DNA of 64,000 bases from positions 6,441-70,440 of the forward strand of contig JAKCCH010000002.1 of NCBI GenBank assembly GCA_021838945.1, read 5' to 3'. Position 1 is the stretch's first letter, and each line of letters begins with the position of its first letter. This document shows, piece after piece, positions 14,901 to 38,007 of this stretch. Position numbers and translations under genes: made by a program. The notes beneath the pieces are model-generated. The model did not search any database and was not told where the DNA came from. It saw only the letters and a list, made by a program, of their open reading frames with translations. The DNA is from Actinomycetes bacterium (GTDB taxonomy: Bacteria > Actinomycetota > Acidimicrobiia > Acidimicrobiales > Bog-793).

Positions 14901-14922
14901 GGACGAGTCTGAGAAGCGGAGC

Positions 14923-15552
14923 TCAGCGCTTCTTCGTGGCCTTCTTCGTGGCCTTGGCAGCCGACGTCTTCTTTGCCGAAGCCTTCGTCGTGGCGGCCTT
15001 CTTGGCCGGAGCTTTCTTGGCCGGAGCCTTCTTGGCCGGAGCCTTCTTGGCTGGGGCCTTCGTCGTGGGGGCCTTCTTGGCCGGAGCCTTCTTGGCCGGG
15101 GCCTTCTTCACCACAGCCTTCTTCGCAGGCGCCTTGTTCGCCGCAGTCTTCTTGGCAGGAGCCGCCTTCGCAGGCGCCTTCTTCGCCACCGCCTTCTTGG
15201 CAGGCGCCTTGTTGGCGGCAGTCTTCTTCGCCGGCGCTGCTGCGGCCGCTGGCGCACCCGGCGCCGGCAGGGCTCCGCGACTGTTGAGCGCCGCCTTCAA
15301 CGTGGCACCCGGCGAGAAGGCGATGCCCTTCGATGCCGGGATTCGAACTGCCGCACCCGTCTGCGGGTTGCGACCCATGCGAGCGGAACGGGCGCGCGGA
15401 CGGAACGTACCGAAACCGGTGATCCGCACGACGTCCCCGCCCTTCACCGCAGACGTGATCGCGTGGATCGTGTGCTCGATGGCCGACTCAGCCTCACGAC
15501 GGCCCAATCCCGCCGCCGCGCTCACTCGACCGATGAGCTCTGTTCTGTTCAC
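14923..15552 (-). CDS. hupB: HU-family nucleoid protein with Lys/Ala/Pro-rich C-terminal tail (HupB/MDP1/HupS type)
   Basis: GTG 15552 lies 5 nt after AGGAGG. The HU fold is visible in [28 protein letters not shown]...[41 protein letters not shown] tail of about 110 aa made of (P)AKKA repeats follows. Confidence 0.9.
14926..15265 (-). repeat. Degenerate tandem coding repeats (AKKAPAKK tail of HU)
   Basis: The plus strand shows reiterated gccttcttggccgg(a/g)gc units. The translated minus strand is [30 protein letters not shown]... Confidence 0.85.
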
Positions 15553-17342: not shown

Positions 17343-20300
17343 GTGACGACGTACCAGACCCCTGCACCCGTGCGCGGGCTGAAGGGCGGGTCGAAAGGCA
17401 CACGGTCACTGCTTATCTGGCGGGCCATGCGCTGGCGGGCCGGCTCTTCCATCATGCTGCTGGCGGTTGCCGTCGCCGCCGTCATGGCCGCCACCGCCGG
17501 ACCCGTCTACCTCCGCGCCGCCGATCAGTCACTCGTCACCTCGGAGCTCCAGAAGGCCAACTTCATCGACACCGGTATCTCGCTCACACCTCAGACCTCC
17601 GCCCAGTACTTCGACGTCGGCCGGTTGCGGTCGGCCGCCGCGAGCGTGCCCGGGGGTGTGGGAGAGAGGGGCAGTCACTTCTCGAGGCCGATCGTGACGA
17701 TCGACTCGCAGGTCGTCGTGAACGACGTGACGGCTGCCCTGCCCGCTGTCATGCAGCTCGTCTACCGCTCCGGCGTCTGTCCCTACTTGAAGATGGTCAA
17801 GGGACATTGCCCGAGCAGCAGGGCCGACGTCGTCCTCTCCACTCGGACGGCTGCTGCCATGCACGTCGGCGTGGGCGACAAGGTGCGTCCGGCGCTGACG
17901 AGCCGCACCCACGCCGCACTCCCTGCGCTCACCGTCTCGGGCCTCTACGTCCCCGGCAATCCGAGCGCTCCGGAGTGGTGGGGGATCAACTACTTCCCGT
18001 ACGGAACCGGCTCGGTGAAGCAGCCGTTCGTCGACTCCGGGTTCGTCACCGAAAAGGGAGCACTCGCCTATTCGGGCCTCGCCCCCACCGAGGACTGGAT
18101 CGACATGGCGCTCCGGCCGAGCTCGATCTCGGCGACAGAGGTCCCGGCGGTTCTGTCCCGACTGTCGGCTTGGCAGAGCCATGTGCAGACGACCGACGGG
18201 GTCCAGGTCGCCACCCAGCTCCCCTCCGTGCTCGGCGTCGCGAGCTCCGAGGAACATTCGGCACAGACGATCGTCGCCATGATCTCGCTCGAGCTCATCC
18301 TCCTCGTGCTGCTCGTCGTCTACGGGATCGCGCGGGCGACGAGCTTCCTCCGCGAACCGGACGTGCGAGTCGCAGAGCTGCGAGGGCTCCCGCGGCGCCG
18401 GATCGCCCGCGTCGCCCTGCGGGAGCCGGCCGTGCTGCTCGTCCTCGCGGTTCCGATAGGCCTCCTGCTCACCTGGCTCGTGCTCGACGTCATAGATCGC
18501 AACGTCCTCGGCCCGGCGGCGACAACCGGGCTCGACTCGCTCGCGGTCGAGGCGGCCCTCGTCGGCTGCGTCGCCGGACTCTTTTCGGTCGCGCTCGGAT
18601 CGCGCAACATGCTCGGCAACCGGCGACCGGACGATACGGCCGAGGACGCGCGCCAGCGCCGCATACGCAACGCCGCCATCGTCGACGCTCTCGGCCTCGC
18701 GCTCGCGATCGCAGGGGTCGTGGAGCTCGTCGGGCAGAGCAGTCACTCGAGCTCGTCGGTGTCGCCTTTCGCCTACCTCGGCCCGGGTCTCGTCGCCCTC
18801 GGCGCCGGCATCCTCGTCGCGCGGTTGCTCCCGCTCCTCGCGGTGCTCGCAGCCCGCTCGCTGACGTGGTCGCGGCGCACCGCCCTGACACTCGCCGCGC
18901 GAAGCGTCGCGCAGCGCCAGGCGCTCACTCGGCAGGCCCTCGTCCCGGCCATCGCGACCGGCCTCCTCGTCTTCGGGGTGGCAGGTCTCGAGGTCGCGGC
19001 GGCGAACCACTCCATGCAGGCCCGGTTCACCGTAGGTGCCCCAGTCGTGTACGACGTTCAGCCGCACGCGGGGGTGGACCTCGTGAGCGCGGTGAGGGCG
19101 GCCGATCCGACGGGGCGGGAGGCTATGGCAGCCGCGAGGATCAACGCCTCGACTGGCACGACGTTGGCGGTGGACAGCACTCGCCTGGCACAGGTGGCGT
19201 CGTGGCCCGCTTCCTTGTCGCCTGTCCCCGCGTCCGTCGTCGCCCGCCAGCTGCGGCCCCCGATGCCGCCACCGCGCATCGTGCCGAACGGCCGCACCGT
19301 CACCATCTCCCTCGACGTCGCCACCTCGATCTCACCCGGACCGGACCTCCAGATGGCCCTGTACGACCGCCACGGCCAAGGGGAGTTCGACGTCGACTTC
19401 GGCGACCTCTCGGCAGGCTCGCACACCTATCGGGGCTCGATCGCCGGCTTCTGCCCTTCCGGCTGCCGTCTCGACCAGCTCATCCTCGGTTGGAGCGGTC
19501 CGCCCCCGCATGCTCCGATGTCGGTGCGCCGAGCCGAGAGGGCCACGGCCTCCAACTTCCAGATGCGGGTGCTCGGGATCGGGGTCATCCGCCGAGCGGG
19601 GGGCGCTTCCGACCTGGTGCCGGTGCCGGCGCGACTGACTCAGCCCGGAGCGTGGCAGGGCAATCCCGCGGCTGTTGTGACGCCCAGCGCGGCGGGGCTC
19701 GGGCTGGACGCGAACCTTGTGAGCACTGCGGGCACACCGATCGCCTCACCGGTCGACGTGCCGTCCGTGCTGCCGAGTGCCGCCACGTCGGAGCTCGTCT
19801 CTCTCGACGGCACACCCGGCAACCCGAAGGGGGTCTTCGCACTCGGGCTCGACGGCGCCCAGCTCGCAGCACACGCCGCCACCGTCGTGCCCGTCCTTCC
19901 GTCGGTGGGTAACGACGCCGCCATGGTCGATCTCACCTTCGAGGAGCTGCTCCAGGGCGGCCAGGCACAGGACGTCACGTGGCAGGTGTGGTTCCACTCC
20001 CCGCCAAGCGCGGCGCTCTTGAGACGGCTGCAGGACCAGGGTGTGTCCCTGCTGTCACAGCACTCGGCCGCATCGGTGCTGCAGGGGATCGATCACACGG
20101 GGCCGGCTTTCGGTTTCGACCTGTACGGGCTGGCTGCAGCCGGCGCCGCTCTGCTCGCGCTCGGCGCGCTCCTGTTCTCGATCGCATCTGACGCCAGACG
20201 GCGGCGGGTCGAGTTCGCCGGGCTTGCGGCAGTCGGGGTGCCACGAAAAACGCTGCTCGGCTCACTGCTCGTCGAGTCCGCCGTGCTCTCGCTCGCCGGT

Positions 20301-20528
20301 GCCGTGGCGGGGACACTGGCAGCAGCCTTGTCCGCGTATTTCGCACTCAGGTTCCTGCCGGAGTTCCCACCGGGTCGCGTCGGTCCCGCTCTGCAGGTCG
20401 GTGTGCCGTGGCTCGACGTCGTGCTCACCGGGCTCGGCATGCTGGTCGTCCTCGGCACAGCCGCCATCGCCGCGAACATCGTGCTCGTGCGCGGCATTCG
20501 TGCAGACCTCCTGAGGTTGTCGCAATGA
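17343..20528 (+). CDS. Large ABC permease with two FtsX/MacB-type domains (about 10 TM, two big extracytoplasmic domains)
   Basis: 1061 aa. An N-terminal TM (SSIMLLAVAVAAVMAATAG) precedes a large soluble domain. A TM bundle follows, containing VAELRGLPRRRIARVALREP, which is FtsX-like. A second soluble domain precedes a second FtsX bundle with EFAGLAAVGVPRKTLLGSLLVES. The stop overlaps the next ATG (ATGA). Confidence 0.75.
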   Translation: MTTYQTPAPVRGLKGGSKGTRSLLIWRAMRWRAGSSIMLLAVAVAAVMAATAGPVYLRAADQSLVTSELQKANFIDTGISLTPQTSAQYFDVGRLRSAAASVPGGVGERGSHFSRPIVTIDSQVVVNDVTAALPAVMQLVYRSGVCPYLKMVKGHCPSSRADVVLSTRTAAAMHVGVGDKVRPALTSRTHAALPALTVSGLYVPGNPSAPEWWGINYFPYGTGSVKQPFVDSGFVTEKGALAYSGLAPTEDWIDMALRPSSISATEVPAVLSRLSAWQSHVQTTDGVQVATQLPSVLGVASSEEHSAQTIVAMISLELILLVLLVVYGIARATSFLREPDVRVAELRGLPRRRIARVALREPAVLLVLAVPIGLLLTWLVLDVIDRNVLGPAATTGLDSLAVEAALVGCVAGLFSVALGSRNMLGNRRPDDTAEDARQRRIRNAAIVDALGLALAIAGVVELVGQSSHSSSSVSPFAYLGPGLVALGAGILVARLLPLLAVLAARSLTWSRRTALTLAARSVAQRQALTRQALVPAIATGLLVFGVAGLEVAAANHSMQARFTVGAPVVYDVQPHAGVDLVSAVRAADPTGREAMAAARINASTGTTLAVDSTRLAQVASWPASLSPVPASVVARQLRPPMPPPRIVPNGRTVTISLDVATSISPGPDLQMALYDRHGQGEFDVDFGDLSAGSHTYRGSIAGFCPSGCRLDQLILGWSGPPPHAPMSVRRAERATASNFQMRVLGIGVIRRAGGASDLVPVPARLTQPGAWQGNPAAVVTPSAAGLGLDANLVSTAGTPIASPVDVPSVLPSAATSELVSLDGTPGNPKGVFALGLDGAQLAAHAATVVPVLPSVGNDAAMVDLTFEELLQGGQAQDVTWQVWFHSPPSAALLRRLQDQGVSLLSQHSAASVLQGIDHTGPAFGFDLYGLAAAGAALLALGALLFSIASDARRRRVEFAGLAAVGVPRKTLLGSLLVESAVLSLAGAVAGTLAAALSAYFALRFLPEFPPGRVGPALQVGVPWLDVVLTGLGMLVVLGTAAIAANIVLVRGIRADLLRLSQ

Positions 20529-21538
20529 GCGGCTTCGATGCAGAGGTTCCGATCCTGCCGGACCTGGTGGACACCGAGCCCGCCCTCCCATCACGCCCGC
20601 CGCCGGGCGGCTCGGCGATCACGCCCGACCCGGCGCAGGGCGCCTTCGCGATCGAGTGCGTGTCGCTCGTGCACCTCTACCACCTCGGTGACACCGATGT
20701 CGTGGCTCTGCGCGGCGTCGACCTCGACATCGACGCCGGCGAGCTCGTCGCGCTGCTCGGGCCTTCGGGTACGGGCAAGTCCACGCTGCTGCGGATCATG
20801 GCCGGGCTGCTTCGTCCGTCGGCCGGGCAGTGCCTCGTCGGCGGGCGCGACATAGGCCGCATGAATGCCACCGAGCTGCGGCGCTACCGGGCCACCGACG
20901 TGGGGATCGTGCTGCAGGACGCGCTCGCGAACCTGCTCCCCTATGCGACCGTCTTCGAGAACATCCACTTCGCATCCGAAGGAGCTCGCTCTCTCGAGGT
21001 GGCACCGCGGCTGTCGGAGGACGACCTCGTCGCCATCCTGGGGCTCGAGGCGTACGCCCACCGCGTGATCTCGACCCTCTCCGGCGGCGAGCAGCAGCTG
21101 GCTGCCCTCGCAACTGGCGCGGCTGCCGGAGCGGGCCTGCTCCTGATCGACGAGCCCACCAGCCAGCTCGACCCCCATGAGCGGGACCGAGTCGCGGCGG
21201 CCCTTCACGACCTGCACGACGGCAGTGGCGCCACCATCGTCATGGTGACGCATGATCCTCATCTGGCGGGCACGGTCCCGCGGACGGTCACGATCCGCGA
21301 CGGTCGCGTCGGCGCGGAGGGGCGTCACGGGACCCAGTACGCGGTCGTCGGGCGGGACGGCACGATCCAGTTGCCGCCGGAGATCTTGGAATTCCTGCCG
21401 CCGGACACCCTCGTGCGGATCGTGAAGCACGCGGACGGCATCGAGCTGCGTCCGCCCTCGGCGGCCGAGGTGCCCGGGACGCCCGGGGCGGCCGGCACGG
21501 CGGGGGTGGCAGGCGGTCACGTGGATCCGCTGCCATGA
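20525..21538 (+). CDS. ABC ATPase 1 (MacB/LolD-type) with N- and C-terminal extensions
   Basis: ATG 20525 overlaps the upstream stop. Motifs: Walker A GPSGTGKST, Q-loop GIVLQD, signature LSGGEQQ, Walker B LLLIDEPTSQLD, H-loop MVTHD. An extra C-terminal segment of about 80 aa (VVGRDGTIQLPPEILEFLPPDTLVRIVKHADGIELRP) is present. Confidence 0.8.
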   Translation: MSGFDAEVPILPDLVDTEPALPSRPPPGGSAITPDPAQGAFAIECVSLVHLYHLGDTDVVALRGVDLDIDAGELVALLGPSGTGKSTLLRIMAGLLRPSAGQCLVGGRDIGRMNATELRRYRATDVGIVLQDALANLLPYATVFENIHFASEGARSLEVAPRLSEDDLVAILGLEAYAHRVISTLSGGEQQLAALATGAAAGAGLLLIDEPTSQLDPHERDRVAAALHDLHDGSGATIVMVTHDPHLAGTVPRTVTIRDGRVGAEGRHGTQYAVVGRDGTIQLPPEILEFLPPDTLVRIVKHADGIELRPPSAAEVPGTPGAAGTAGVAGGHVDPLP

Positions 21539-22218
21539 CGGGAGAGCCGGTGCAGTCGGGCCCGGGCGCGGGAACGGACGCAGGGGCGGCACTTGAGCCC
21601 GCCCCGCTCGTCGCCCATGGCCTGTGCCTGCACCTCGGCGGGCGCCAGCTCATCGACGGGATCGACCTCGTCGTCGAACCGGGAGAGCTGGTGGGGATCC
21701 TCGGTCCGTCCGGGGCGGGGAAGACGTCGCTTCTCATGGTGCTCGCCGGTGTGCTCAAGCCCGATGCCGGATCCGTGTCCCGCACCGGGAGGCTCGGGTT
21801 CGTGCCCCAGACGCTCGGCCTCTCGCCCACGTCGACGGCGTCGGAGAACGTCGCTTTGACCCTGCAGGTGCACCGGACCGAGAAGGCCGAGATGCAACGG
21901 CGCGTGCGGGCATCGCTCGCGGCGGTCGGGCTGGCACAGCACGACCGGATCGTGGCGGAGCTGTCAGGTGGGCAGCGTGCCCGCGTGGCGATCGCCCGGG
22001 CCGTGGCCCTGCAGCCGCAGGTGCTCATCGCTGACGAGGCGACGGCCGAGCTCGACGTCGAGAATCAGAGGATCGTGATGGATTTGTTCGAGCAGGCGGC
22101 CGACGCCGGCGCTGCCGTCGTCCTCGCGACGCACGATCCGCTCGTGGCGGAACGCTGCACGCGGACATACCTGCTCGACGACGGCCACCTCATCGAGGGT
22201 GGCACGCTCGACCAGTAG
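21535..22218 (+). CDS. ABC ATPase 2 (second, different nucleotide-binding subunit)
   Basis: ATGA overlap at 21535-21538. Motifs: Walker A GPSGAGKTS, Q-loop GFVPQT, signature LSGGQRARVAIARA, Walker B LIADEATAELD, H-loop LATHD. Confidence 0.8.
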   Translation: MTGEPVQSGPGAGTDAGAALEPAPLVAHGLCLHLGGRQLIDGIDLVVEPGELVGILGPSGAGKTSLLMVLAGVLKPDAGSVSRTGRLGFVPQTLGLSPTSTASENVALTLQVHRTEKAEMQRRVRASLAAVGLAQHDRIVAELSGGQRARVAIARAVALQPQVLIADEATAELDVENQRIVMDLFEQAADAGAAVVLATHDPLVAERCTRTYLLDDGHLIEGGTLDQ

Positions 22219-22259
22219 CGCGCGCCACCGCGTTTTCGGGAAACCTGCGGTAGTCGTGG

Positions 22260-22320
22260 GGTAAGGGCGCAGGAGTCGTCCGGTAGGTACTCCGGTAGGT
22301 CCCCATGGTTCGCTGTCGCG
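22260..22320 (+). promoter_or_regulatory. Upstream element GGTAAG-N6-GGAGTC-N16-GGTAGG-N21-GTG, shared with the relaxase gene
   Basis: GGTAAGGGCGCAGGAGTCGTCCGGTAGGTACTCCGGTAGGTCCCCATGGTTCGCTGTCGCG, then GTG at 22321. An ungapped alignment to the minus-strand sequence 26388..26328 gives 37/61 identities. All four blocks sit at identical distances from the start codon. It contains a 12-nt tandem TCCGGTAGGTAC/TCCGGTAGGTCC (22279-22302). Confidence 0.55.
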
Positions 22321-23763
22321 GTGGATCCGCTCGACGAACTGCGGGCTGCAACGGCCCTGTACGGCTATGGATTGCGCATCGGTTGTCCGTCCGGCGACGG
22401 TGCCCCCGATATCTTCGTGGACCCCGAGCGGTCCCTCCTCGCCATCGGTCCGCCCCGCTCGGGCAAGACCTCCGCCCTCGTAGTGCCGAACGTGCTCGCC
22501 GCCTGTGGTCCCGTCGTGACCACTTCGACCAAGCCTGACGTCGTCCTCATCACATCCCCCGCCCGCTCCCGCGTCGGCCGCTGCATGCTCTTCGACCCCG
22601 GCGGCAGCACTCGAGACGTCCCCGGAGTGGAAAGGATCTCCTGGTCACCGCTGTCGACTGCGATCGAGTTCCACGGAGCCGAGCTCATGGCACGGACCAT
22701 GGTGGAAGCGGCCCGACCCGGTGCAAGACAGGGTGAGTCGACCCACTGGCTGGAACGGGCCGAGACGCTCCTCGCGCCGGCCTTCCACGCTGCCGCGATC
22801 GACGGGATGCCCATGTCACGCTTGCTGTCGGCCATCGACCGTCGCCAGGGCGAGGACTTCCGCGCCATCCTCGCCCGGCACGACCGTGAGGTCCCGCTCT
22901 CGAGCCTCGACGGGATCCTCGCAACCGAGGACCGCGAGCAGAGCGGCATCTGGTCGACGGGATCCTCGATCCTCTCCGCCTACCGGTCCGAGCGGGCACT
23001 CGAGAGCACCGCCGGCCGGACGGTCGACTTCGAGGAGCTCGTGCGGAGTGGCGACACCTTGTACATCTGCTCGCCATCCGAAGAGCAACGCCGCGCCGCG
23101 CCCATCGTCTGCGGCCTCCTGCGCGACGTCCGCGCAGCGGCATACGACGCGTCTGCCGCCGGCGAGCTCGGGGCCGCGAACCGGCGGCCGCCCCTGTTGT
23201 TGCTCCTCGACGAGGTGGCGAACATCGCGCCGCTACACGACCTGCCCGATCTCGTAGCGACAGGCGGGAGCCAGGGCGTCGTGACGCTGGCCTGTCTGCA
23301 GGACCTCTCGCAAGCGGTGGAGAGGTGGGGGCGGATCGGCGAGGGTTTCTTGGGGATGTTCAACGCGAAGGTGATCTTCCCCGGCGTCGGGTGCGTCCGG
23401 ACGCTCGAGGAGGTCTCCCGCCTCGCCGGCGAGCACGAGGTCACGACGGTGTCGACGAGCGAAGGGCACCGCCTGCCCGGTCTGGCGGGCGCTCTCGGCA
23501 GACGGACGCCACCGGCCAGGACGTGGTCGACCCGGCGCGAAAGGGTCCTCCCAGTCGAGCACGTCGCACAAGGATGGCCGGGTCACGTCGTCTGCCTTGA
23601 AGGCGCCCGCCCTTCGCTCGTCGAGGCACGCCCGTGGTTCCAGGTCCCACGGCTGGCGCGTGTCGTCGAGCAGTCGCGGACACCGGAACGGAGCTACATC
23701 GAGAGTCCCCGGCCGCCGATCTCACGCGCGGAGCGGGCGGGCTCACGCCCTCTCGGCCGCTGA
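22321..23763 (+). CDS. VirD4/TraD/TraG-family coupling-protein-like ATPase lacking transmembrane segments
   Basis: Walker A IGPPRSGKTSALVVPN, Walker B PPLLLLLDEVANIAP, then TLACLQDLSQAVERWG, as in type IV coupling proteins (T4CPs; TraG-D_C-like). There is no hydrophobic N-terminal helix. GTG start. Confidence 0.7.
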   Translation: MDPLDELRAATALYGYGLRIGCPSGDGAPDIFVDPERSLLAIGPPRSGKTSALVVPNVLAACGPVVTTSTKPDVVLITSPARSRVGRCMLFDPGGSTRDVPGVERISWSPLSTAIEFHGAELMARTMVEAARPGARQGESTHWLERAETLLAPAFHAAAIDGMPMSRLLSAIDRRQGEDFRAILARHDREVPLSSLDGILATEDREQSGIWSTGSSILSAYRSERALESTAGRTVDFEELVRSGDTLYICSPSEEQRRAAPIVCGLLRDVRAAAYDASAAGELGAANRRPPLLLLLDEVANIAPLHDLPDLVATGGSQGVVTLACLQDLSQAVERWGRIGEGFLGMFNAKVIFPGVGCVRTLEEVSRLAGEHEVTTVSTSEGHRLPGLAGALGRRTPPARTWSTRRERVLPVEHVAQGWPGHVVCLEGARPSLVEARPWFQVPRLARVVEQSRTPERSYIESPRPPISRAERAGSRPLGR

Positions 23764-26327
23764 GGGTCGTGTGCAATTCCTGATCGGGCGATCTCGATCT
23801 CGGCGCGGATCTCGCTCATCCGGCGCCGCAGCGACCGCGCTCCCACATCGGCGTCACGACCGAAGGCCGAGGCCTCGGCGGTGATGCCGCAGCTCTCGCG
23901 GTAGGACTCGAGCAGCCCGGCGCCAAGGCGCCACAACCGGCGGGCTTCCGGCTCGCGTTGCACGGGCCCGAGCTCGGCCACGAGGTGCGGCGCCCGCACA
24001 ACCTCGGCAGCGCGGGCGAGAGCCCCCATGGGGTCTCTCGTCGCTCCTACGGCAACGACGACGTGAGTCCGCTCGAGCTCGGCCAGCCGTGTCGCGCTCA
24101 TGGAGAGAGGGGCCGTCCCGCCGATCACGACGACGGCTGGTGGCCGGTGATCGAACCTGCCTCGGTCCCGGTGCGAGCTCGCAAGGCGGGCGGAGACCTT
24201 GCTCGCCGGGAGGACCATGAGCGAACCGGGTTCCCGTGCATGAGCCCGCGGGTCCGGGGTGGGCACGCCGGCCGGCACACCGACTACCGGTTGCTTCGCC
24301 GCCAGCGCGGCCTCGACGTGCGCGACGAGGGAGTGGTCCGGCAGGACGAGCAGCGCGTCGCGTCCCTGCTCCTGCTGCTCGATGGCGTGGCGCATGGCGG
24401 CAGCGCACGCCGCTTCGAGATCCGGAGCGAGCTCGACCGACAGGTTCGGACCGAGTGAGCGCGGTGCAGCTGGCTCGAGGGAGGGGGCGGTGCCGGCAGT
24501 GGTAGCCGCGAGTCGTTCGGGCTCGGGTCGCCAACCGTCGATCGATGCGATCCGGGGTGCCTCGGCCTGCACGACCTCGAGCATGCGGGCCGCCTCGAGC
24601 GCGTGCTCGGCGGCGAGCAGCACGGGCTGTGCACCGCGGAGCCGGCATGCCGTCATGACATCTGCCACTTCCGCCTCCAACATCGAAGCGCAGTCCGCCA
24701 GGACGACCACGTCGCCACGACCGAGATGTGGCACGACTGACCTCGCCTCCCTCACCGGGAAGGACTCGACTCCGGTCGACGCCTCGAAGCGCGCGGCTGC
24801 CGCCGGGCCGACCGCAAGGGCGACGACCCGACGTTCGCCTGGTGCGGCTGCGCCGCCTGGGCCGTTCGCACCACTCGGGTCACCGGTGATGCCTCCCTCG
24901 ATCCCAGGCGGCCGTCCCGCCAGTCGAACGACCGCAGCCAGTGCGCCGGCGCGTCCGAGGGGTCCTGCTGCGTCGTAGGTGAGCACGCTCGCGGCAGTCT
25001 CCCGAGCGAGTGAGCCGAGCCGGGAGGCCGACTCCTGCAGCAGCTCCTGCTGCGCGACCGTCGTGTAGCGGTCGCCGTCTGCCTGGAGCACGTCCGGACG
25101 GGCGAGAGCTCGGTCGACAGCGATGACGGCCGCGCCGATGCTGATGCCTTCGGAGAGCGATGCACAGCGTGCGATCAACAGGTCGTGACGAGTGAAGGTC
25201 CCGTCACCGCGGCCGGCGGCCGCGCCGAGCCACTCGAGGTCGCCCTCCGCTCCCGGATGCTGCACCTCCGGCACCGGCGCGGTCCTCTGCACAGCCGGCG
25301 CAGCCGGCGCGTCGCGGCGCTCGATGTGCGCCGCGTCCGCCTCGGGCGCCGTGCTGGCCCCGCCTGCGGCCAACAGGTGCAGCGCCGGCTCGAGACCGGC
25401 CGCTCGATCGAGGCGGCTCTGCGACAGACCGCAACGGTGGGCGAGCTCGCGCCACTCCTCCTGAAGCTGCTGGTACGGGCGGGACCGATCCTTCTCCGGG
25501 CGGATCTGCCTCGCGATGGCCGCCGCCTCCTCCGGCCCTTCGAGCCCGGCAGCCGCCATGTGGAGCCCGATGAGCTCGCTCTGGCGGGAGAAACGACGAA
25601 TCGTTCCGACATCGATCCCCACCACGTCCGCAAAGTCGCGCCTCATCGGACCGAAGCGCATGCCGATCGCCGTCAACTCCTTCCGCAGGTGCGCCTCAAA
25701 CAGCACCTTCGCGACACGTTGGCTCCGGTAGATGCGGCGGCTGTCGAGGGATCTCCACCGGTCGTCCACCCCACACGCCACGTTCGCGATGACGAGGTGG
25801 GTGTGAAGGTGCGGGTCGTTCGCCCTGCTCGTCCTGTGCGGGAAGGCGACGCCGACAGCACCCCGCGTCCCGAGGAGCTCGCGGCGCCCGCCCGGCCGTT
25901 CGCCGCGCAACCCGGCCGGGACGACGGCACGCCGCCCCGTCCGGAGCACCTCGTCCTCGAGGAACCGGAGAGTCGCCACCACGGCTGCCTCCTTCGCGGC
26001 GCCGATGCGGTCGGAGGCCTCAGGGCTCGCCAGCGCGTGCAGCAGCGACACGGACTTCGGTGTGGACAGGACGACGTCGAAAGCAGCGATCGTGCGACGC
26101 GACTGCCACTGAGGAGACAGCGTCTCGCCCGAGGTCGGGTCGATGCCGTGGAGGAGCCGCCGGACCTCTTCGAGGATCGGACTGCCGCGCAGGCCGAGCT
26201 CGAGTGCACCTTGCCCGATCCAGTACGGGTCGGGCTCGATCAGCCCGTCGGGGAGGTCTGTCGTGGCCCTCAGGGTCGAGAAGTAGTAGCCCTCGCCCCC
26301 GGGCCTGATGGGTGAGACCTTGAGCAT
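23694..26327 (-). CDS. MOBF (TrwC/TraA-type) relaxase with a degenerate C-terminal helicase-like region
   Basis: ATG at 26327. The N-terminus MLKVSPIRPGGEGYYFS has paired Tyr residues. The His triad is FPHRTSRANDPHLHTHLVIAN. The rest aligns loosely with RecD-like/AAA_30 parts, but there is no GK[ST] anywhere. The best P-loop remnant is AAGPLGRAG and the best Walker B remnant is VVVLADCASM. Confidence 0.75.
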   Translation of the reverse strand: MLKVSPIRPGGEGYYFSTLRATTDLPDGLIEPDPYWIGQGALELGLRGSPILEEVRRLLHGIDPTSGETLSPQWQSRRTIAAFDVVLSTPKSVSLLHALASPEASDRIGAAKEAAVVATLRFLEDEVLRTGRRAVVPAGLRGERPGGRRELLGTRGAVGVAFPHRTSRANDPHLHTHLVIANVACGVDDRWRSLDSRRIYRSQRVAKVLFEAHLRKELTAIGMRFGPMRRDFADVVGIDVGTIRRFSRQSELIGLHMAAAGLEGPEEAAAIARQIRPEKDRSRPYQQLQEEWRELAHRCGLSQSRLDRAAGLEPALHLLAAGGASTAPEADAAHIERRDAPAAPAVQRTAPVPEVQHPGAEGDLEWLGAAAGRGDGTFTRHDLLIARCASLSEGISIGAAVIAVDRALARPDVLQADGDRYTTVAQQELLQESASRLGSLARETAASVLTYDAAGPLGRAGALAAVVRLAGRPPGIEGGITGDPSGANGPGGAAAPGERRVVALAVGPAAAARFEASTGVESFPVREARSVVPHLGRGDVVVLADCASMLEAEVADVMTACRLRGAQPVLLAAEHALEAARMLEVVQAEAPRIASIDGWRPEPERLAATTAGTAPSLEPAAPRSLGPNLSVELAPDLEAACAAAMRHAIEQQEQGRDALLVLPDHSLVAHVEAALAAKQPVVGVPAGVPTPDPRAHAREPGSLMVLPASKVSARLASSHRDRGRFDHRPPAVVVIGGTAPLSMSATRLAELERTHVVVAVGATRDPMGALARAAEVVRAPHLVAELGPVQREPEARRLWRLGAGLLESYRESCGITAEASAFGRDADVGARSLRRRMSEIRAEIEIARSGIAHDPQRPRGREPARSAREIGGRGLSM

Positions 26328-26388
26328 GGCATCACGCTGCCAAACGCCCTTACCGTTGGATCTCCCGGAGGACTCCCGCTTGCTTACC
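26328..26388 (-). promoter_or_regulatory. Upstream element GGTAAG-N6-GGAGTC-N16-GGTAAG-N21-ATG, partner of 22260-22320
   Basis: The minus strand reads GGTAAGCAAGCGGGAGTCCTCCGGGAGATCCAACGGTAAGGGCGTTTGGCAGCGTGATGCC, then ATG. The first 24 nt are 19/24 identical to 22260-22283. Confidence 0.55.
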
Positions 26389-26406
26389 GGCCTTTCCGAT
26401 GCGCTC

Positions 26407-28503
26407 TCACCTCGGTGCGGCTGAGTTGCCGTCCTCGTACCGCCGTAGCGCCCGACGAGCCGCCCGCGCCGCGATCTCCACGAGCTCGGGTGGTGACAGC
26501 ACCTCTGCGCCGGGACCGAGGCGGAGCATCAGCCATCCGAACCAGCCCTCGGCATCACCGACGAGGATGTCGGTGGCGAGGCGTCCGTCGCCGAGCGGCT
26601 CGATCGCCGAAGCGGCGTACTGCTCGACCCCGAGGGCGGACTCCGGTGCGAAGGCGATCCGCGCCCGCACTGAGTCCGGCCCGCCGACGAACGCTTCCGG
26701 CCCGGTGAGCGATTCGTCGAGCTCGGCCGGCGGCTCGAAGTGCTCCCCCGTGCCGCTCACTGCCCGGATGCGGTCGACCTGGAAGCGCCGTTGATCGTCG
26801 ACGAGATGGCACCATCCGTCGAGGTACCAACGCCCCTCGCGGAGCACGACCTGGTACGGGTCCACCTGGCGGCGGGTCGGCTCGGTCGCAGCGCTCGAGA
26901 AGTACTCGATCTCGACGCGCTCGCGACGCTCGACCGCCTGTTGCAGCACGCGGAGGAAGGCCGGCTGCTCGACGTCGACGGAGAGACGCGCCTGCCCGAG
27001 CACGGCCTCCAACTTCGCGAGCGCTGAACGCAGCGCCCCTTCCTCGTCCGCACCGGCGACCTCCGTCAGAGCCTTGGCAGCCGCCGCGAGCGCGAAGCCC
27101 TCCTCCGGCGTGAGGCGCCGGGGTCTGGCGAGATGCCCCAGCCCGAACGCCGAGACGTGGTCACCGTCGACGATGAGCTCGATCAGCTGATCAGGCGTGT
27201 AGGGCGGCACTCCGCAACATGCGGCCAGCTCGAGGTCGTGGACGAGCTCGGCCTCGTCCATGTCGAAACGCTGCGCGATCTCGCCGATCCCCGCCTCCCC
27301 CACTCTCGCAAGGTGGACGAGGACGGCAAGCAAGCGGCGGAGCCGCTCTCCCGCCACCAGCCCTTGTGCGGGTGTGCGGCGGCGACGTGCGCCCGGGATC
27401 CTGCCCCCGGGAGAGCCGCCAGATGAAGCGCCCGAGGAATTGTGGTGGGGCGCGCCAGCTGCCATCGGCTCTCTTGCGAGGCCGTCCTTGTCAACCCGAG
27501 CATCCTTGCCCCTGGGGCGGCGCCCTTCTCGTGGAGATCGGGATGAGGGACGACCGCCCGACTCGGCTGCCTCGACCAGGTGCTCGACGACGAGCGCACG
27601 AAGTCGCTCCGGACCGAGAACGACCGCAGTGTCCCCGAGGCCCGAGACCCACGAGACGAAGGCTCGCTCGTCGGCGATCGGGAGGCGCAACCGCACCGAA
27701 CCCTCGGCCTGCCACTCGGCGATCGCGCTCGCCGGGACGAGGGACGCCACGTGGCGTGCCATGCGGGCGTCGACCACGACCTCGGCCACCGGGAGGTCCT
27801 GCGAGCCGGATGAGCCGAAGGGGAGCAGTTGGATCTCCGAACGCAGGTCGAGATCGGCCGGAGGTGAGAACGCGCCCGATTCCCCGAGCTCTGGCCGCGT
27901 CTCGAGGCGATCCACCCGGAACGTCCGCATCGCACCGCCTTCGCCCACCGTGCGGTCCTTCGCGACGAGGTACCAGGCGGCCTGGCGGAAGGTGAGCCCA
28001 TATGGCTCCACCTCCCGTTCCCGACCGCGGTAGCGGAACCTGAGGAGTGCGTTGCGCCGGAGCGCCTCGTGCACGGGCCCGAGCGCAGGCACGGACGGGA
28101 GGACCGCGACAGGTGCCTCGAGCCGTGGACCTGTTCCGTGGCCGAGGGCCGAGAGCGCGTCCCGCCCGGCGTTGCCGCCGAGCTGCACCGCCGCCACCGC
28201 GAACGCCAACGCCTGCGCCTCCGCCTCGTTGAGGTCGAGGTCCGGCAGGTAGTAGTCCTCGGGTCGCACGACGTAGCCGACCTGCTCCTCCGCGTTGATC
28301 GGCACACTCGTGATCGGGATGCCGAGATCGCGAAGCGCCCGCTTGTCGCGCTCGAAGGCCTGGCGGGCGGTCTCCTTGCCCCCGGGGTAGCCCTCGACCC
28401 GAGCCGCGATCTCGCGGAGGGAGAGCGGCTGCTCCGCGTCGAGCAACACGAGCATCAGGTTCGTGAGCCGTTCGAGACGGTCGGGGCGCGGCTCAAAGGC
28501 CAT
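26407..28503 (-). CDS. pafBC: Fused double HTH-WYL-WCX regulator (PafB-PafC fusion-like)
   Basis: 698 aa in two tandem units. Unit 1 has a wHTH (RLERLTNLMLVLLDAEQPLSLREIAARV) and a WYL domain (RFRYRGREREVEPYGLTFRQAAWYLVAKD). Unit 2 follows a basic/Gly-rich linker and has LRRLLAVLVHLARVGEAGIGEIAQRF and EIEYFSSAATEPTRRQVDPYQVVLREGRWYLDGWCH. Confidence 0.75.
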   Translation of the reverse strand: MAFEPRPDRLERLTNLMLVLLDAEQPLSLREIAARVEGYPGGKETARQAFERDKRALRDLGIPITSVPINAEEQVGYVVRPEDYYLPDLDLNEAEAQALAFAVAAVQLGGNAGRDALSALGHGTGPRLEAPVAVLPSVPALGPVHEALRRNALLRFRYRGREREVEPYGLTFRQAAWYLVAKDRTVGEGGAMRTFRVDRLETRPELGESGAFSPPADLDLRSEIQLLPFGSSGSQDLPVAEVVVDARMARHVASLVPASAIAEWQAEGSVRLRLPIADERAFVSWVSGLGDTAVVLGPERLRALVVEHLVEAAESGGRPSSRSPREGRRPRGKDARVDKDGLAREPMAAGAPHHNSSGASSGGSPGGRIPGARRRRTPAQGLVAGERLRRLLAVLVHLARVGEAGIGEIAQRFDMDEAELVHDLELAACCGVPPYTPDQLIELIVDGDHVSAFGLGHLARPRRLTPEEGFALAAAAKALTEVAGADEEGALRSALAKLEAVLGQARLSVDVEQPAFLRVLQQAVERRERVEIEYFSSAATEPTRRQVDPYQVVLREGRWYLDGWCHLVDDQRRFQVDRIRAVSGTGEHFEPPAELDESLTGPEAFVGGPDSVRARIAFAPESALGVEQYAASAIEPLGDGRLATDILVGDAEGWFGWLMLRLGPGAEVLSPPELVEIAARAARRALRRYEDGNSAAPR

Positions 28504-28525: not shown

Positions 28526-29152
28526 TCAGATGCCGAAGTTCGACTTCTCCACCGCAGCGACTGCGTCAGCGGGACCGTCCAGCTCCACCTTGGCGACCGA
28601 CTGCCGCCCGAACAGGTACAAGGTGAGCTCCTGGGGGCTTGCGGTCATGGTGACCTTCGGGGCTCCCGGGCGAGCCGTGATCGAGCCGTACCCCGGTGCC
28701 ACGAGCTCGAGGCCGGCCCCACGCACCCGTCGCGCGAGCAGTCGTGCACCACGGCGGAGCCTTGCCCACAGGGCGTCATCGAGCTGCTTGTCCTCCCGGG
28801 ACCCCGGGTTCTCGTCGCCGGCACGGCGGACATCTTCATGGTGCACGAAGTACTCGGCGGTGTTCACCTGCTCGTCGAGCAGCTTGAAAGGGAGGGGCGG
28901 ACCGGATCGGACGCGGCGGATGAGGCCTTCGTAGCCGTAGGTCCGTTTCGCCGAGTCCATGGCCGACTGCGTCAGGCCGGCAAGCGGGCGCACCACCATG
29001 CCGGCGCCCGCCCACGGTCTTGACTCACGAACGAAGAGGTGGGCGGCCAGGTCAGAGGTGACCCACCCTTCGCAGAGGGTCGGCGCGAGCGGTCCCTTGT
29101 CCTCGAGAAGGGAGCAGAGCGCCTGGCGTTCTGACTGCGCCACGCTGGTCAT
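28526..29152 (-). CDS. DinB/YfiT-like protein (mycothiol-dependent maleylpyruvate-isomerase N-terminal domain family)
   Basis: In-frame ATG 29152 (MTSVAQSERQALCSLLEDKG...). CEGWVTSDLAAHL and FVHHEDVRRA are typical of the actinobacterial DinB-like families. The 25-codon upstream extension is Arg/Gly-rich. Confidence 0.65.
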   Translation of the reverse strand: MTSVAQSERQALCSLLEDKGPLAPTLCEGWVTSDLAAHLFVRESRPWAGAGMVVRPLAGLTQSAMDSAKRTYGYEGLIRRVRSGPPLPFKLLDEQVNTAEYFVHHEDVRRAGDENPGSREDKQLDDALWARLRRGARLLARRVRGAGLELVAPGYGSITARPGAPKVTMTASPQELTLYLFGRQSVAKVELDGPADAVAAVEKSNFGI

Positions 29153-29237
29153 GACTTGCACGGTACCGCCGGCGGTGCCGTCGCGTGGCCCACCCGGCCG
29201 GCGGCCGCGGCGGCGCCGCAGCCGCATCGGCGCCGGC

Positions 29238-36941: not shown

Positions 36942-37958
36942 TCAGGCCTCGTGGGAAGCGGCCCATGCGAGGAGCTCGCCGGCGGACCCCGTGTTCACGA
37001 TCCGTCTCGCGTCGAGGCCCGCTTCGGCGGCCTGCTCACAACCGAGGTACAGCCACTCGAGCTGCCCCGGGGCGTGGGCGTCGGTGTCGACAGTCACGAC
37101 GCATCCGGCATCCACAGCCTTGGCGAGGAGATCCGGGGGCGGGTCCCGACGCTCGGGGCGTGAGTTGATCTCGACCGCGGTCCCCGTACGGGCGCAGGCG
37201 GCGAACACCGCCTCGGCATCGAACTGCGACTGCGGCCGGCCTCTCCCCACGATCAGCCGTCCCGTGCAGTGACCGAGGATGTCGACCTGCGGGCTCTCGA
37301 TCGCCCGGATCATGCGTTCGGTCATCTGCGGCGCCTCCATGCGCAGCTTCGAGTGCACGCTCGCGACGACGACGTCCAGCTGCGCCAGCAGCTCCTCGGT
37401 CTGATCGAGCGTCCCGTCCTCGAGGATGTCCACCTCGATGCCCGTGAGGAGACGCCAGGGCGCCATCTCCTCGTTCACCTGCGCGACGACCTCGAGCTGG
37501 GACCGCAACCGGTCGGCATCGAGGCCGTGCGCCACCGTGAGACGCGGGCTGTGATCGGTGAGCACGAGGTACTCGTGCCCAAGGGCCCGCGCCGCCTCGG
37601 CCATCTCTCGGATCGGGCTCCCGCCGTCGGACCAGTCAGAGTGCGAGTGGCAGTCACCCTTCAACTGCGCGCGGAGCGCCTCGGCCGCATCCGACACGCC
37701 GTCGCCCTCCTCGCCCTCCAGCTGGCGGAGGTAGGACGGCACGCCGCCCTCGAGCGCCTCCGCGACGACCTTCGCCGTCGTGTCGCCGACGCCCTCGAGG
37801 TCCTTCAGCCGACCGGCCCTGGCGAGCCGCTCGAGCGTCTCGCGGTCGGTCACGTCGATCGTCGCTGCCGCCCGCCGAAACGCCCGCACCTTGTAGCTCT
37901 CCGCCCTCCCCCGCTCGAGCAGGTAGGCGACGCGGCGGAGGGCCTCTGCGGGTTCCAT
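36942..37958 (-). CDS. PHP-domain phosphoesterase with N-terminal helix-hairpin-helix region (PolX-related, no polymerase core)
   Basis: In-frame ATG 37958 (MEPAEALRRVAYLLE). HhH: LKDLEGVGDTTAKVV. PHP motifs: GDCHSHSDWSDG, LVLTDHSP and VTVDTDAHAP. Confidence 0.8.
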   Translation of the reverse strand: MEPAEALRRVAYLLERGRAESYKVRAFRRAAATIDVTDRETLERLARAGRLKDLEGVGDTTAKVVAEALEGGVPSYLRQLEGEEGDGVSDAAEALRAQLKGDCHSHSDWSDGGSPIREMAEAARALGHEYLVLTDHSPRLTVAHGLDADRLRSQLEVVAQVNEEMAPWRLLTGIEVDILEDGTLDQTEELLAQLDVVVASVHSKLRMEAPQMTERMIRAIESPQVDILGHCTGRLIVGRGRPQSQFDAEAVFAACARTGTAVEINSRPERRDPPPDLLAKAVDAGCVVTVDTDAHAPGQLEWLYLGCEQAAEAGLDARRIVNTGSAGELLAWAASHEA

Positions 37959-38007
37959 CGCCGGGTGACCGTACCTGCTCACCGCCGCTCCGTGGCACGA
38001 TGGCCGG

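Follow-up and report, generated by a model that had tools for sequence, protein, structure and literature searches.

A 64,000-nt window of contig JAKCCH010000002.1 (GCA_021838945.1), from the Acidimicrobiales lineage Bog-793, was analyzed. All positions given here are window coordinates, with predicted gene and transcription starts. In this window, a gene for an ATPase resembling type IV coupling proteins (T4CPs) and a gene for a MOBF-type relaxase are found beside a gene for a PafBC-type regulator with two WYL domains. The original prediction, made from the sequence, had suggested that these genes may be a domesticated nick-and-translocate system and not a functional conjugative element, with no other conjugation-type genes in the window. 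All three genes were recovered where they had been predicted, the relaxase and the T4CP were the only conjugation-type genes among about 45 ORFs scanned, and the view of the system as domesticated was supported. The conjugation-derived module has lost its transmembrane domain (TMD), its helicase ATPase motifs and the second tyrosine pair of its relaxase, and no type IV secretion system (T4SS) is found nearby.

The three proteins

The genes, and the two parts of the relaxase, were located as follows.

22321..23763, + strand: soluble type IV coupling protein-like ATPase, 480 aa (Pfam, NCBIfam, AlphaFold2 (AF2)/Foldseek)
23694..26327, - strand: MOBF/TrwC-type relaxase without helicase motifs, 877 aa (Pfam, NCBIfam, Foldseek)
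25428..26327, - strand: trans-esterase (HUH nickase) domain of the relaxase, about aa 1-300 (invariant columns; Foldseek)
23883..25244, - strand: vestigial RecD-like helicase region of the relaxase, about aa 362-815 (hhalign, Foldseek; no Walker A/B)
26407..28503, - strand: fused PafB-PafC-type regulator, 698 aa, with the unit helix-turn-helix (HTH)-WYL-WCX present twice (Pfam, 6SJ9)

The T4CP matched the Pfam families TraG-D_C (2.8e-19), T4SS-DNA_transf (4.7e-18) and TrwB_AAD_bind, and it is made up of a nucleotide-binding domain and an all-alpha domain. Its Walker A motif (GPPRSGKT, residues 43-50) and Walker B motif (LLLLLDE, with D297/E298) are intact, and both motifs, together with about 90 other columns, are invariant across 26 homologues of 46-76% identity. 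The predicted lack of a membrane anchor was confirmed: Walker A begins at residue 43, and no hydrophobic segment was found ahead of it, even with the longest possible open reading frame (ORF). The plasmid homologues of Iamia sp., itself a member of the Acidimicrobiia, and of M. kansasii measure 590-608 aa, and two transmembrane (TM) segments precede their Walker A motifs (residues 181 and 189). Compared to plasmid homologues of the same class, the window protein lacks this two-TM N-terminus of about 140 residues. A hydropathy scan flagged 56 “TM-like” segments in T4CP homologues, but they were rejected as anchors by their position (about 45-90, mostly 55-75), which was read by segment position and not by each homologue’s own Walker A. 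This position matches that of AAVVVPNVLAA, right after Walker A in the window protein, so the segments are taken as the hydrophobic strand that follows Walker A. The AF2 model of the T4CP (predicted local distance difference test (pLDDT) 87, predicted template modeling score (pTM) 0.84) superposed in Foldseek on Cag-beta (8dol, E 2e-16) and on TrwB-deltaN70 (1e9s, TM-score 0.71 over 414 columns), with HerA/FtsK-type ATPases as weaker structural neighbors.

Relatives of the module were gathered from one genome per species, using the 80 best relaxase matches and a few look-ups, which yielded 82 distinct loci. This set is biased to relaxase-bearing loci similar to the query, and its counts are not a measure of prevalence. 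All of the relatives are uncultured metagenome-assembled genomes (MAGs), almost all of them labeled Acidimicrobiia or only to phylum or class, and their neighboring genes were scored by tblastn with the window proteins. A PafBC-like fusion or an adjacent pafB/pafC-like pair was found on the same strand, at most 4 kb upstream of the relaxase and usually adjacent to it, in 46 of the 82 loci. A convergent T4CP gene is also carried by 31 of these 46. Four more loci have the T4CP on a contig that ends before the regulator side, and 32 have neither gene.

The relaxase matched Pfam TrwC (PF08751) at aa 35-297 (2.8e-56) and scored 166 bits with NCBIfam MobF, for which the cut-off is 100. In its AF2 model (pLDDT 78, pTM 0.71), the nickase domain superposed on TrwC and pKM101 TraI with TM-scores of 0.80-0.89 (E ~1e-17; 0.85-0.89 for TrwC alone). 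It was originally predicted that the HUH and tyrosine motifs are intact. This was correct for the first tyrosine pair (Y14/Y15) and the His triad (H164...D171-P-H173-L-H175-x-H177), and D84 is also kept, but the second tyrosine pair of MOBF motif I is absent from the window relaxase. This pair (“EEYY”, aligned with TrwC Y25/Y26) was present in 27/27 classical relaxases and in 0/54 of the linked type. The first tyrosine pair, D84, H164, R168, D171, H173, H175, H177 and N182 are kept in 51/51 linked relaxases, the sole exception being one Tyr-to-Phe change at the second position of the pair. For TrwC, it has been reported that Y18 makes the initial cut, and Y26 is proposed to act in the strand transfer that recircularizes the DNA in the recipient (PMC10359608).

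The rest of the relaxase was found to be a helicase in fold and not in motifs, as had been predicted from the loss of Walker A and B. Pfam detected no helicase domain in the protein, which also contains no GK[ST] motif. However, a profile of the C-terminal part of its relatives matched the classical MOBF helicase region with an hhalign probability of 99% (E 2.5e-18). In this alignment, the classical AGTGKT is matched to residues that form no P-loop and VDEAGM (DEAG) falls on V(L)ADxG, so that both the P-loop and the DE positions are replaced. A motif Ia-like stretch, “VVALAPGxRAAxxFEAxTGIE”, is retained in linked relaxases. In the AF2 model, the region folds into an N-terminal helical sub-domain followed by two RecA-like ones. 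Foldseek aligned the whole relaxase chain with F TraI (5n8o) over 751 columns, and the C-terminal part matched RecD2 (3gp8/3e1s) and RecD (3k70_D). Walker A was found in 0/50 relaxases linked to WYL or T4CP genes (46 WYL-linked and four T4CP-linked on cut contigs), compared to 23/31 others. Among the eight others without Walker A, five keep the second tyrosine pair and are at most 600 aa long (two are cut by contig ends), and the remaining three (L026, L045, L055) group with linked clades. F TraI itself contains a vestigial helicase domain that has no Walker A/B and serves as a domain for binding single-stranded DNA (ssDNA) (PMC5422253).

The window relaxase could be aligned along its whole length with 18 full-length relatives (31-50% identity), for which TrwC was the only Pfam match. 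Linked relaxases occur in a long form of 730-830 aa with the vestigial helicase, a short form of 415-470 aa (about 20 proteins) that has no room for any helicase region, and an extra-long form of 1037 and 1127 aa. The extra-long proteins, found at L024 and L027, have neither Walker A nor the second tyrosine pair, and they are PafBC-linked with no adjacent T4CP gene. Extra-long relaxases without Walker A or the second tyrosine pair were also seen at L026 (at least 1113 aa, cut by the contig end) and L045 (1107 aa). The contigs of these two are short or cut at an end (5.7 kb; the relaxase some 2.4 kb from the end), and no regulator was detected in the 2.4 kb upstream. At L086 (contig_21845, 1.67 Mb), a 448-aa gene at 11713-13059 with only a weak AAA_30 match sits between the T4CP and a fused PafBC-like gene. 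In a crude, midpoint-rooted neighbor-joining tree, which was not used to count domestication events, the classical relaxases formed one clade and the linked relaxases formed several deep clades.

The C-termini of the two groups were also compared. In most linked relaxases, the last residues form a short conserved tail, ...G-[LI]-[GS]-R (also LSR and GRSR), located at about 23694-23770 in the window and seen across L001-L084. The endings ...GLGL, GIEL and DLGL are those of classical MOBF relaxases from the same class. The tail of the linked relaxases may act as a signal recognized by the T4CP or another partner.

The regulator contains two WYL domains, two WCX domains and an HTH_PafC domain (PF19187, 6.9e-26). 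Among solved structures, it is closest to the natural PafBC fusion of Arthrobacter aurescens (PDB 6SJ9, E 1.8e-47), and its N- and C-terminal halves match M. smegmatis PafB (E 4e-18) and PafC (E 8e-25), respectively. In PADLOC-DB 2.0, it matched generic WYL models. The gene lies upstream of the relaxase gene on the same strand, and the predicted gap of about 80 nt was measured as 79 nt; as had also been noted, it is co-directional with the alkA-ogt-DinB cluster. The recognition helix reads RQAFERDK, compared to SRMFERDK in mycobacteria. PafBC is triggered by ssDNA (PMC11804915) and acts through a -26 element on promoters that have no -35 element (PMC8635444). SiwR of M. smegmatis is a WYL activator of adjacent DinB/YfiT-like genes, which binds the -26 region and ssDNA (PMC10693628). 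By analogy with these proteins, the regulator may sense ssDNA and activate both the relaxase and T4CP genes.

Chromosomal position, inheritance and selection

The surroundings of the module look chromosomal. Among about 45 ORFs scanned across the 64 kb there was no integrase, VirB4 or other T4SS gene, no tRNA was detected in the window, and a search for att-like repeats flanking the module found none, as had been predicted. T4SS or integrative and conjugative element (ICE) genes were also missing within +/-10 kb of six related loci scanned with Pfam. The G+C content is about 70% throughout the window with no compositional break at 22-29 kb, and the three genes show the same codon pattern, with high G+C at third positions, as their neighbors, which bears out the earlier remark on codon style.

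The order of genes at the locus is shared with Acidimicrobiales MAGs whose relaxases are only 38-40% identical to that of the window (30-55% across loci). It runs from a pyridoxal phosphate (PLP)-decarboxylase through Ada/AlkA, Ogt, in some cases a peptidase S51, a DinB-like protein, the double-WYL regulator and the relaxase, followed by zero to five variable genes, the convergent T4CP, and ABC/FtsX and/or AMP-ligase genes. At further loci, PIG-L, CofC, adenylate cyclase and GH38 genes extend the synteny on the T4CP side, and the regulator side of the loci looked up carries housekeeping genes and neither Pup-proteasome nor T4SS genes. When the closest group of loci is compared with the next one, identity to the window drops from 68-71% to 64-67% for Ada/AlkA, from 68-72% to 53-58% for the regulator, from 59-64% to 43-54% for the T4CP, from 49-55% to 39-43% for the nickase domain and from 32-35% to 27-29% for the vestigial helicase, and it stays at 76-79% for the AMP-ligase. 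The flanking and module genes thus diverge in parallel, as vertical descent predicts. Across diverged genomes, the module occupies one fixed and syntenic place in the chromosome, and the identity values indicate that it is inherited vertically in many Acidimicrobiia. Since it is conserved and chromosomal, with the trio recurring from locus to locus, the label “orphan” given to it at the outset was misleading.

In the window, the 3' ends of the relaxase and T4CP ORFs share 70 nt (23694-23763). The two genes also meet tail to tail in most related clades, with anything from an 11-nt overlap to a 60-nt gap, so their close convergence is probably ancestral. No space is left between them for a terminator or an origin of transfer (oriT).

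Two possible mobile origins were rejected. A tblastn search of 72,556 plasmids gave best matches of about 30% identity for the relaxase, in the N-terminal part only, and about 35% for the T4CP, and on these values both a plasmid origin and near-identical plasmid copies were rejected. An ICE or an integrative and mobilizable element (IME) was rejected on the lack of integrase, tRNA, att repeats and compositional shift and on the constancy of the flanks across deep clades. The trio is also not strain-specific, as it is syntenic in MAGs with relaxases that are 30-55% identical.

Ratios of nonsynonymous to synonymous substitution (dN/dS) were calculated by the Nei-Gojobori method (NG86) for closely related pairs of loci, with some dS values near saturation. 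They were 0.18-0.37 for the relaxase (0.09-0.29 in the nickase domain and 0.36-0.49 in the C-terminal helicase part), 0.10-0.22 for the T4CP and 0.10-0.25 for the regulator. These ratios show purifying selection on all three genes. With values of 0.10-0.37 and the catalytic residues kept, the genes are not decaying pseudogenes.

Promoters and neighboring genes

Phased hexamer repeats were found upstream of both conjugation-type genes.

22249..22299, + strand: candidate operator/promoter of the T4CP gene, five phased hexamers upstream of the GTG start
26349..26388, - strand: candidate operator/promoter of the relaxase gene, four phased hexamers upstream of the ATG at 26327

The T4CP hexamers are GGTAGT (22249), GGTAAG (22260), GGAGTC (22272), GGTAGG (22282) and GGTAGG (22294). 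Those of the relaxase are GGTAAG (26388-26383), GGGAGT (26377-26372), GGGAGA (26366-26361) and GGTAAG (26354-26349), with periods of 11, 11 and 12 nt. Across both promoters the period is 10-12 nt, and in each the last repeat ends 21 nt before the start codon, placing it at -27..-22. The exact 10-mer GGTAAGGGCG is common only to these two promoters. A paired-repeat pattern marks the T4CP promoter and has one further match in the window, apparently by chance; the relaxase repeats fall just outside this pattern. When the promoters of both genes from the window, L001 and L005 were compared, they gave a gap-free alignment that reaches the start codon. T-15, G-14 and T-7 are invariant in it, which fits an extended -10 element and a leaderless transcript. 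No canonical sigma-70 (-35/-10) promoters and no intrinsic terminators were detected at 22.0-28.8 kb.

Similar elements were found in other clades. Eight loci of the sister clade share an invariant CCGGTAGGT, N5, GGT(C/T)(G/A)(G/C), N9, TAnnCA, N6 and the start codon, with the surrounding intergenic DNA unconserved, and the T4CP promoters of that clade contain GGTAGG-N6-GG(T/C)TA. In a third clade, GGTAGG is again common to both promoters. A strict two-repeat pattern had 26 matches in 1.36 Mb searched on both strands, 16 of which are in relaxase or T4CP promoters. The repeats, the alignment and the pattern scans all support the earlier claim that the two genes share a regulatory element, and their co-regulation is well supported by these sequence data. 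The mycobacterial PafBC box has the form tGTCgg-N10-tAnnnT, and the PafB HTH contacts positions -23..-28 (PMC8635444). Both the GGTAGG and the GGTCGG repeats at about -26 resemble this box, with a spacer shorter by 1-2 nt, and the GGTCGG of the sister clade differs from tGTCgg at one position. It is reasonable to infer that the operator is read by the neighboring WYL protein.

GGTAGG was rejected as one universal operator, since a loose count of single hexamers was not discriminating and other clades are AT-rich. CATGAAA-like repeats occur about 100 nt upstream of the relaxase at L009, L015, L020, L024, L027, L031, L054, L072, L077-L079 and L084, and a conserved TTTGCAAGGATTATT element was seen upstream of the T4CP at L040, L043, L054, L067, L070 and L072. 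These promoters are AT-rich islands in genomes of 66-71% GC, and GGTAGG repeats are absent from them. The operator seems to have been replaced during evolution while the regulator helix RQAFERDK remained constant.

On the regulator side of the window, DinB-like, ogt and ada-alkA genes are co-directional, with a divergent PLP-decarboxylase gene beyond them. The T4CP side holds two ABC ATPase genes, an FtsX permease gene and an acyl-CoA ligase gene, and the remaining genes of the window are metabolic or transport genes. No Rfam family matched in the window, and no pafA or proteasome genes were found in its 64 kb. The gene next to the regulator is the following.

28526..29227, - strand: DinB/MDMPI_N-like gene, ending 22 nt before the regulator gene; no Pfam match in the window

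Orthologues of this gene at L001 and L003 had a weak MDMPI_N match. It is 50-71% identical in about 13 distinct loci (tblastn) and is conserved in the window’s clade and sister clades. The DinB-like gene and the regulator gene may be co-transcribed, but the former is context, and its membership in the module is unproven.

Other features were observed in the window or at a related locus. Directly upstream of the T4CP and co-directional with it, with a gap of 102 nt, are the genes for an FtsX-type permease (1061 aa) and two ABC ATPases (17343-22218). This arrangement recurs at L003 and L005 and is not found in other clades. A membrane complex beside an anchor-less T4CP could be a coincidence or a docking partner. 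A PolX-like gene (HHH_8 and PHP; 36942-38276, - strand) adds to the DNA-repair flavor given by ada-alkA, ogt and the DinB-like gene, and its upstream region has no GGTAGG operator. At 14917-15267, a 15-nt unit (consensus GCCTTCTTGGCCGGA) is repeated in tandem about 16-24 times. Read on the minus strand, this array would encode PAKKA-type pentapeptide repeats that resemble the lysine-rich tail of actinobacterial HU/Hlp proteins, and at L087 an HU-family gene lies at the matching position, between the PIG-L and T4CP genes.

Possible function and relation to known systems

The reading that we favor, at a probability of roughly 0.45, is that the module processes ssDNA intermediates inside the cell as part of a host response to DNA damage or ssDNA. 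The regulator would sense ssDNA, as PafBC, SiwR and DriD suggest. It would then switch on the relaxase and T4CP promoters, which have no -35 element and are probably leaderless, through the shared GGTAGG-like operator; the position of the repeats and their likeness to the mycobacterial -26 element tGTCgg point to activation. The relaxase would cut ssDNA with its remaining tyrosine pair and His triad, as its conserved active site suggests, and attach to it covalently. The strand could be held by the vestigial helicase domain, in which the fold is kept and the ATPase motifs are lost, in the manner of the ssDNA-binding domain of F TraI. The relaxase would be unable to complete a normal transfer cycle because both the second tyrosine pair, which serves termination and recircularization in the recipient, and the helicase motor are absent. 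Lastly, the anchor-less T4CP ring ATPase, with its ATPase site intact, may translocate the relaxase-bound strand or strip it. A more specific proposal, which we put forward tentatively, is that a relaxosome core was exapted on the chromosome and wired to an ssDNA sensor, so that damage or incoming conjugative ssDNA leads to covalent capture and ATP-driven handling.

Several observations weigh against the favored reading. Some of these concern the control of the genes. The strict repeat pattern was not seen before regulator, DinB-like or ada genes in the 1.36 Mb searched, and the mycobacterial PafBC box is absent from the window, even with one mismatch allowed. In other clades, the distance from the operator to the start codon varies between promoters, and some promoters carry AT-rich motifs. 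This variable position would also fit a repressor or another factor. In the recognition helix, the equivalent of PafB R46 is Gln, with an Arg shifted by one position, although the equivalent of R50 is present. In addition, the canonical place of pafBC is directly after pafA, within the Pup-proteasome locus (PMC8223512, PMC6789036), and no pafA or Pup-proteasome genes are found beside the regulator in the window or in the related loci scanned. Because it lies away from this location, the regulator may be a dedicated paralogue.

Other observations of this kind concern the two enzymes. No nic site was identified, and no conserved hairpin-plus-nic element lies near the genes; the conserved non-coding DNA consists of the direct repeats of the promoters, and inverted repeats in the promoters, judged by eye, are short and not conserved. 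In 15/46 linked loci, no T4CP gene lies beside the relaxase, partly due to contig ends, and the L086 gene described above keeps the helicase-like part but apparently has no nickase domain, which was lost or split off (no TrwC domain). T4CPs without a TMD can still serve conjugation through a membrane partner (PMC7434980). Finally, the relaxase evolves much faster than its neighbors and occurs in long, short and extra-long forms. The short relaxases of L040 (10001-11326) and L052 (10001-11329) have a dN/dS of 0.73 at a dS of 0.19, compared to about 0.10-0.16 for the adjacent T4CP, regulator and AMP-ligase genes, suggesting that selection on the short form is relaxed or diversifying. A fast and variable relaxase is more typical of a conflict system than of housekeeping repair.

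This pattern leads to the strongest alternative, immunity against conjugation or other mobile genetic elements. Here, incoming ssDNA would activate the WYL regulator, and the relaxase would cap or cut the strand or block its recircularization. The cuts would fall at MOBF-type nic sequences in conjugative, rolling-circle phage or plasmid DNA, and the T4CP would strip the strand or compete for it. A cognate threat exists, because classical MOBF relaxases with a helicase and the second tyrosine pair are common in the same class. The divergence of the relaxase (30-55% identity, against 76-79% for the AMP-ligase, and the one pair at 0.73) is as expected in an arms race. Moreover, WYL regulators control defense systems, PADLOC WYL models match this regulator, and the structural neighbors of the T4CP include defense HerA-type ATPases (SIR2-HerA, DndH). 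However, defense systems are typically patchy and island-borne, and vertical inheritance at one housekeeping locus would be unusual for them. No other defense genes were seen nearby, and a known defense system was rejected because PADLOC-DB 2.0 gave nothing useful for either enzyme (0 matches for the relaxase and a marginal one, mad8 at E 1e-3, for the T4CP). Overall, we consider immunity less likely than the favored reading but a serious alternative to it.

Another possible explanation is that the two genes are co-regulated without the WYL protein. The relaxase itself, by autoregulation, or an unlinked factor would bind GGTAGG, and the PafBC-like gene would be a mere neighbor. The absence of the operator upstream of the regulator and the adjacent repair genes, its differing position between promoters and clades, the AT-rich motifs found despite the same helix RQAFERDK, and the lack of a canonical PafBC box would all be explained in this way. 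Against it, a fused or split regulator accompanies the relaxase gene, side by side and in the same direction, in 46 loci from several deep clades, also where other neighbors differ. In the window’s clade, moreover, the last repeat at -27..-22 coincides with the zone contacted by the PafB HTH in mycobacteria (-23..-28), and the GGTCGG of the sister clade is one position off tGTCgg. Control by a factor other than the WYL protein is therefore regarded as improbable.

The module could also act in mobilization in trans. In this case, a chromosomal oriT-like site would be nicked and the DNA handed to a T4SS encoded elsewhere, making the module a fixed, IME-like unit without an integrase. Some mobilizable elements do carry their own T4CP beside the relaxase, and TraJ of pIP501, which has no TMD, works with a membrane partner (PMC7434980). 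Acidimicrobiia also carry MOBF plasmids with a T4SS, and the conserved C-terminal tail of the relaxase could serve as a recognition signal. Mobilization is less likely because the second tyrosine pair and the helicase are missing: the pair is lost in 54/54 linked-type relaxases and the helicase ATPase motifs in 50/50 WYL/T4CP-linked ones, with about 20 of them too short for a helicase. Furthermore, the module has no integrase or att sites, its chromosomal position is stable, and there is no conserved hairpin-plus-nic oriT. An oriT between the relaxase and T4CP genes is impossible, since they abut or overlap tail to tail in most clades. We regard this explanation as improbable. A functionless, decaying remnant of an old integrated conjugative element, as the lost helicase motifs, second tyrosine pair and TMD and the loci without a T4CP gene or nickase domain might suggest, can be dismissed given intact ORFs in dozens of lineages, dN/dS of 0.1-0.4, catalytic residues kept in 51/51 relaxases, invariant T4CP Walker motifs and an operator conserved in otherwise unconserved intergenic DNA.

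Each part of the module resembles a known system, and each differs from it. Residues 1 to ~850 of F TraI are like the window relaxase, with a trans-esterase followed by a RecD2-like fold without Walker A/B. In F TraI, however, an active helicase and a C-terminal recruitment domain follow, there are further catalytic tyrosines, and the protein is plasmid-borne and T4SS-dependent. The window relaxase has no active helicase after it, has lost the second tyrosine pair and is chromosomal and WYL-linked. TrwC and TrwB of R388 have in common with the module the nickase fold and active site, the soluble ATPase part and the linkage of relaxase and T4CP. In contrast to R388, the module has no TrwA-like gene, TMD, Y26 equivalent, T4SS or recognizable oriT with an inverted repeat and nic site, and it is predicted to have no helicase activity. 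Identity to R388-type structures in Foldseek alignments is low (17-19% for the T4CP and 26-28% for the relaxase). An anchor-less T4CP, and a relaxase and T4CP without a T4SS, are also known from TraJ of pIP501 and from IME or mobilizable-plasmid modules (PMC7434980). Those modules are on mobile elements, keep full relaxase chemistry and use a helper T4SS, and the IMEs carry integration functions, whereas the module in the window is fixed in a housekeeping locus, is apparently vertical and has no second tyrosine pair.

The regulator shares with PafBC its two HTH-WYL-WCX units, the PafB-then-PafC order and the PafC-type HTH, and fusion of the two proteins is known in some Actinomycetes. Its putative target promoters are also PafBC-like, with no -35 element and an element at about -26. 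Unlike PafBC, it is away from pafA, has the helix RQAFERDK and a putative operator of GGTAGG repeats, and has only two target promoters seen. SiwR is similarly a local WYL protein beside a DinB-superfamily gene (PMC10693628), but it is a single-chain homodimer with no relaxase or T4CP partner. HerA-NurA, SIR2-HerA and TdpAB follow the same logic of a ring translocase with a DNA-cutting partner inside the cell. Their partner is a hydrolytic nuclease, whereas the window encodes a T4CP-clade ATPase with an all-alpha domain and an HUH trans-esterase that would form an adduct.

When the defining tests of a working MOBF relaxase-helicase, a T4SS-coupled T4CP, a canonical PafBC locus and an ICE/IME were applied, the module fell outside all four categories. 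Single features have precedents, namely the vestigial helicase of F TraI (PMC5422253), the TMD-less subfamily of T4CPs (PMC7434980), fused PafBC and the position of SiwR beside DinB-like genes. Since each part alone has a precedent, the novelty is in the combination, the chromosomal fixation and the systematic losses. As the original prediction had supposed, a full-text literature search gave nothing relevant on a system of this composition, with no description of a PafBC/WYL, relaxase and T4CP module or of a domesticated or Acidimicrobiia relaxase. The search also found no report of conjugation proteins exapted by a host.

Exaptation is known for transposases and for phage parts. If the proposal of an exapted relaxosome core wired to an ssDNA sensor is true, this would be the first conjugation machinery domesticated for intracellular repair or immunity. 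Relaxases and coupling proteins are taken as hallmarks of mobile elements, and such a lineage would show that parts of the relaxosome can be exapted by the host. Callers of ICEs, IMEs and plasmids that rely on MOBF and T4CP matches will mislabel these loci in Acidimicrobiia, a class abundant in soil and water. Natural relaxases with a single tyrosine pair and a dead helicase would provide a comparative handle on the roles of the second tyrosine and of the vestigial helicase. For the regulator, the linkage gives a testable set of targets and a sharply defined candidate operator for a WYL protein outside Actinomycetes.

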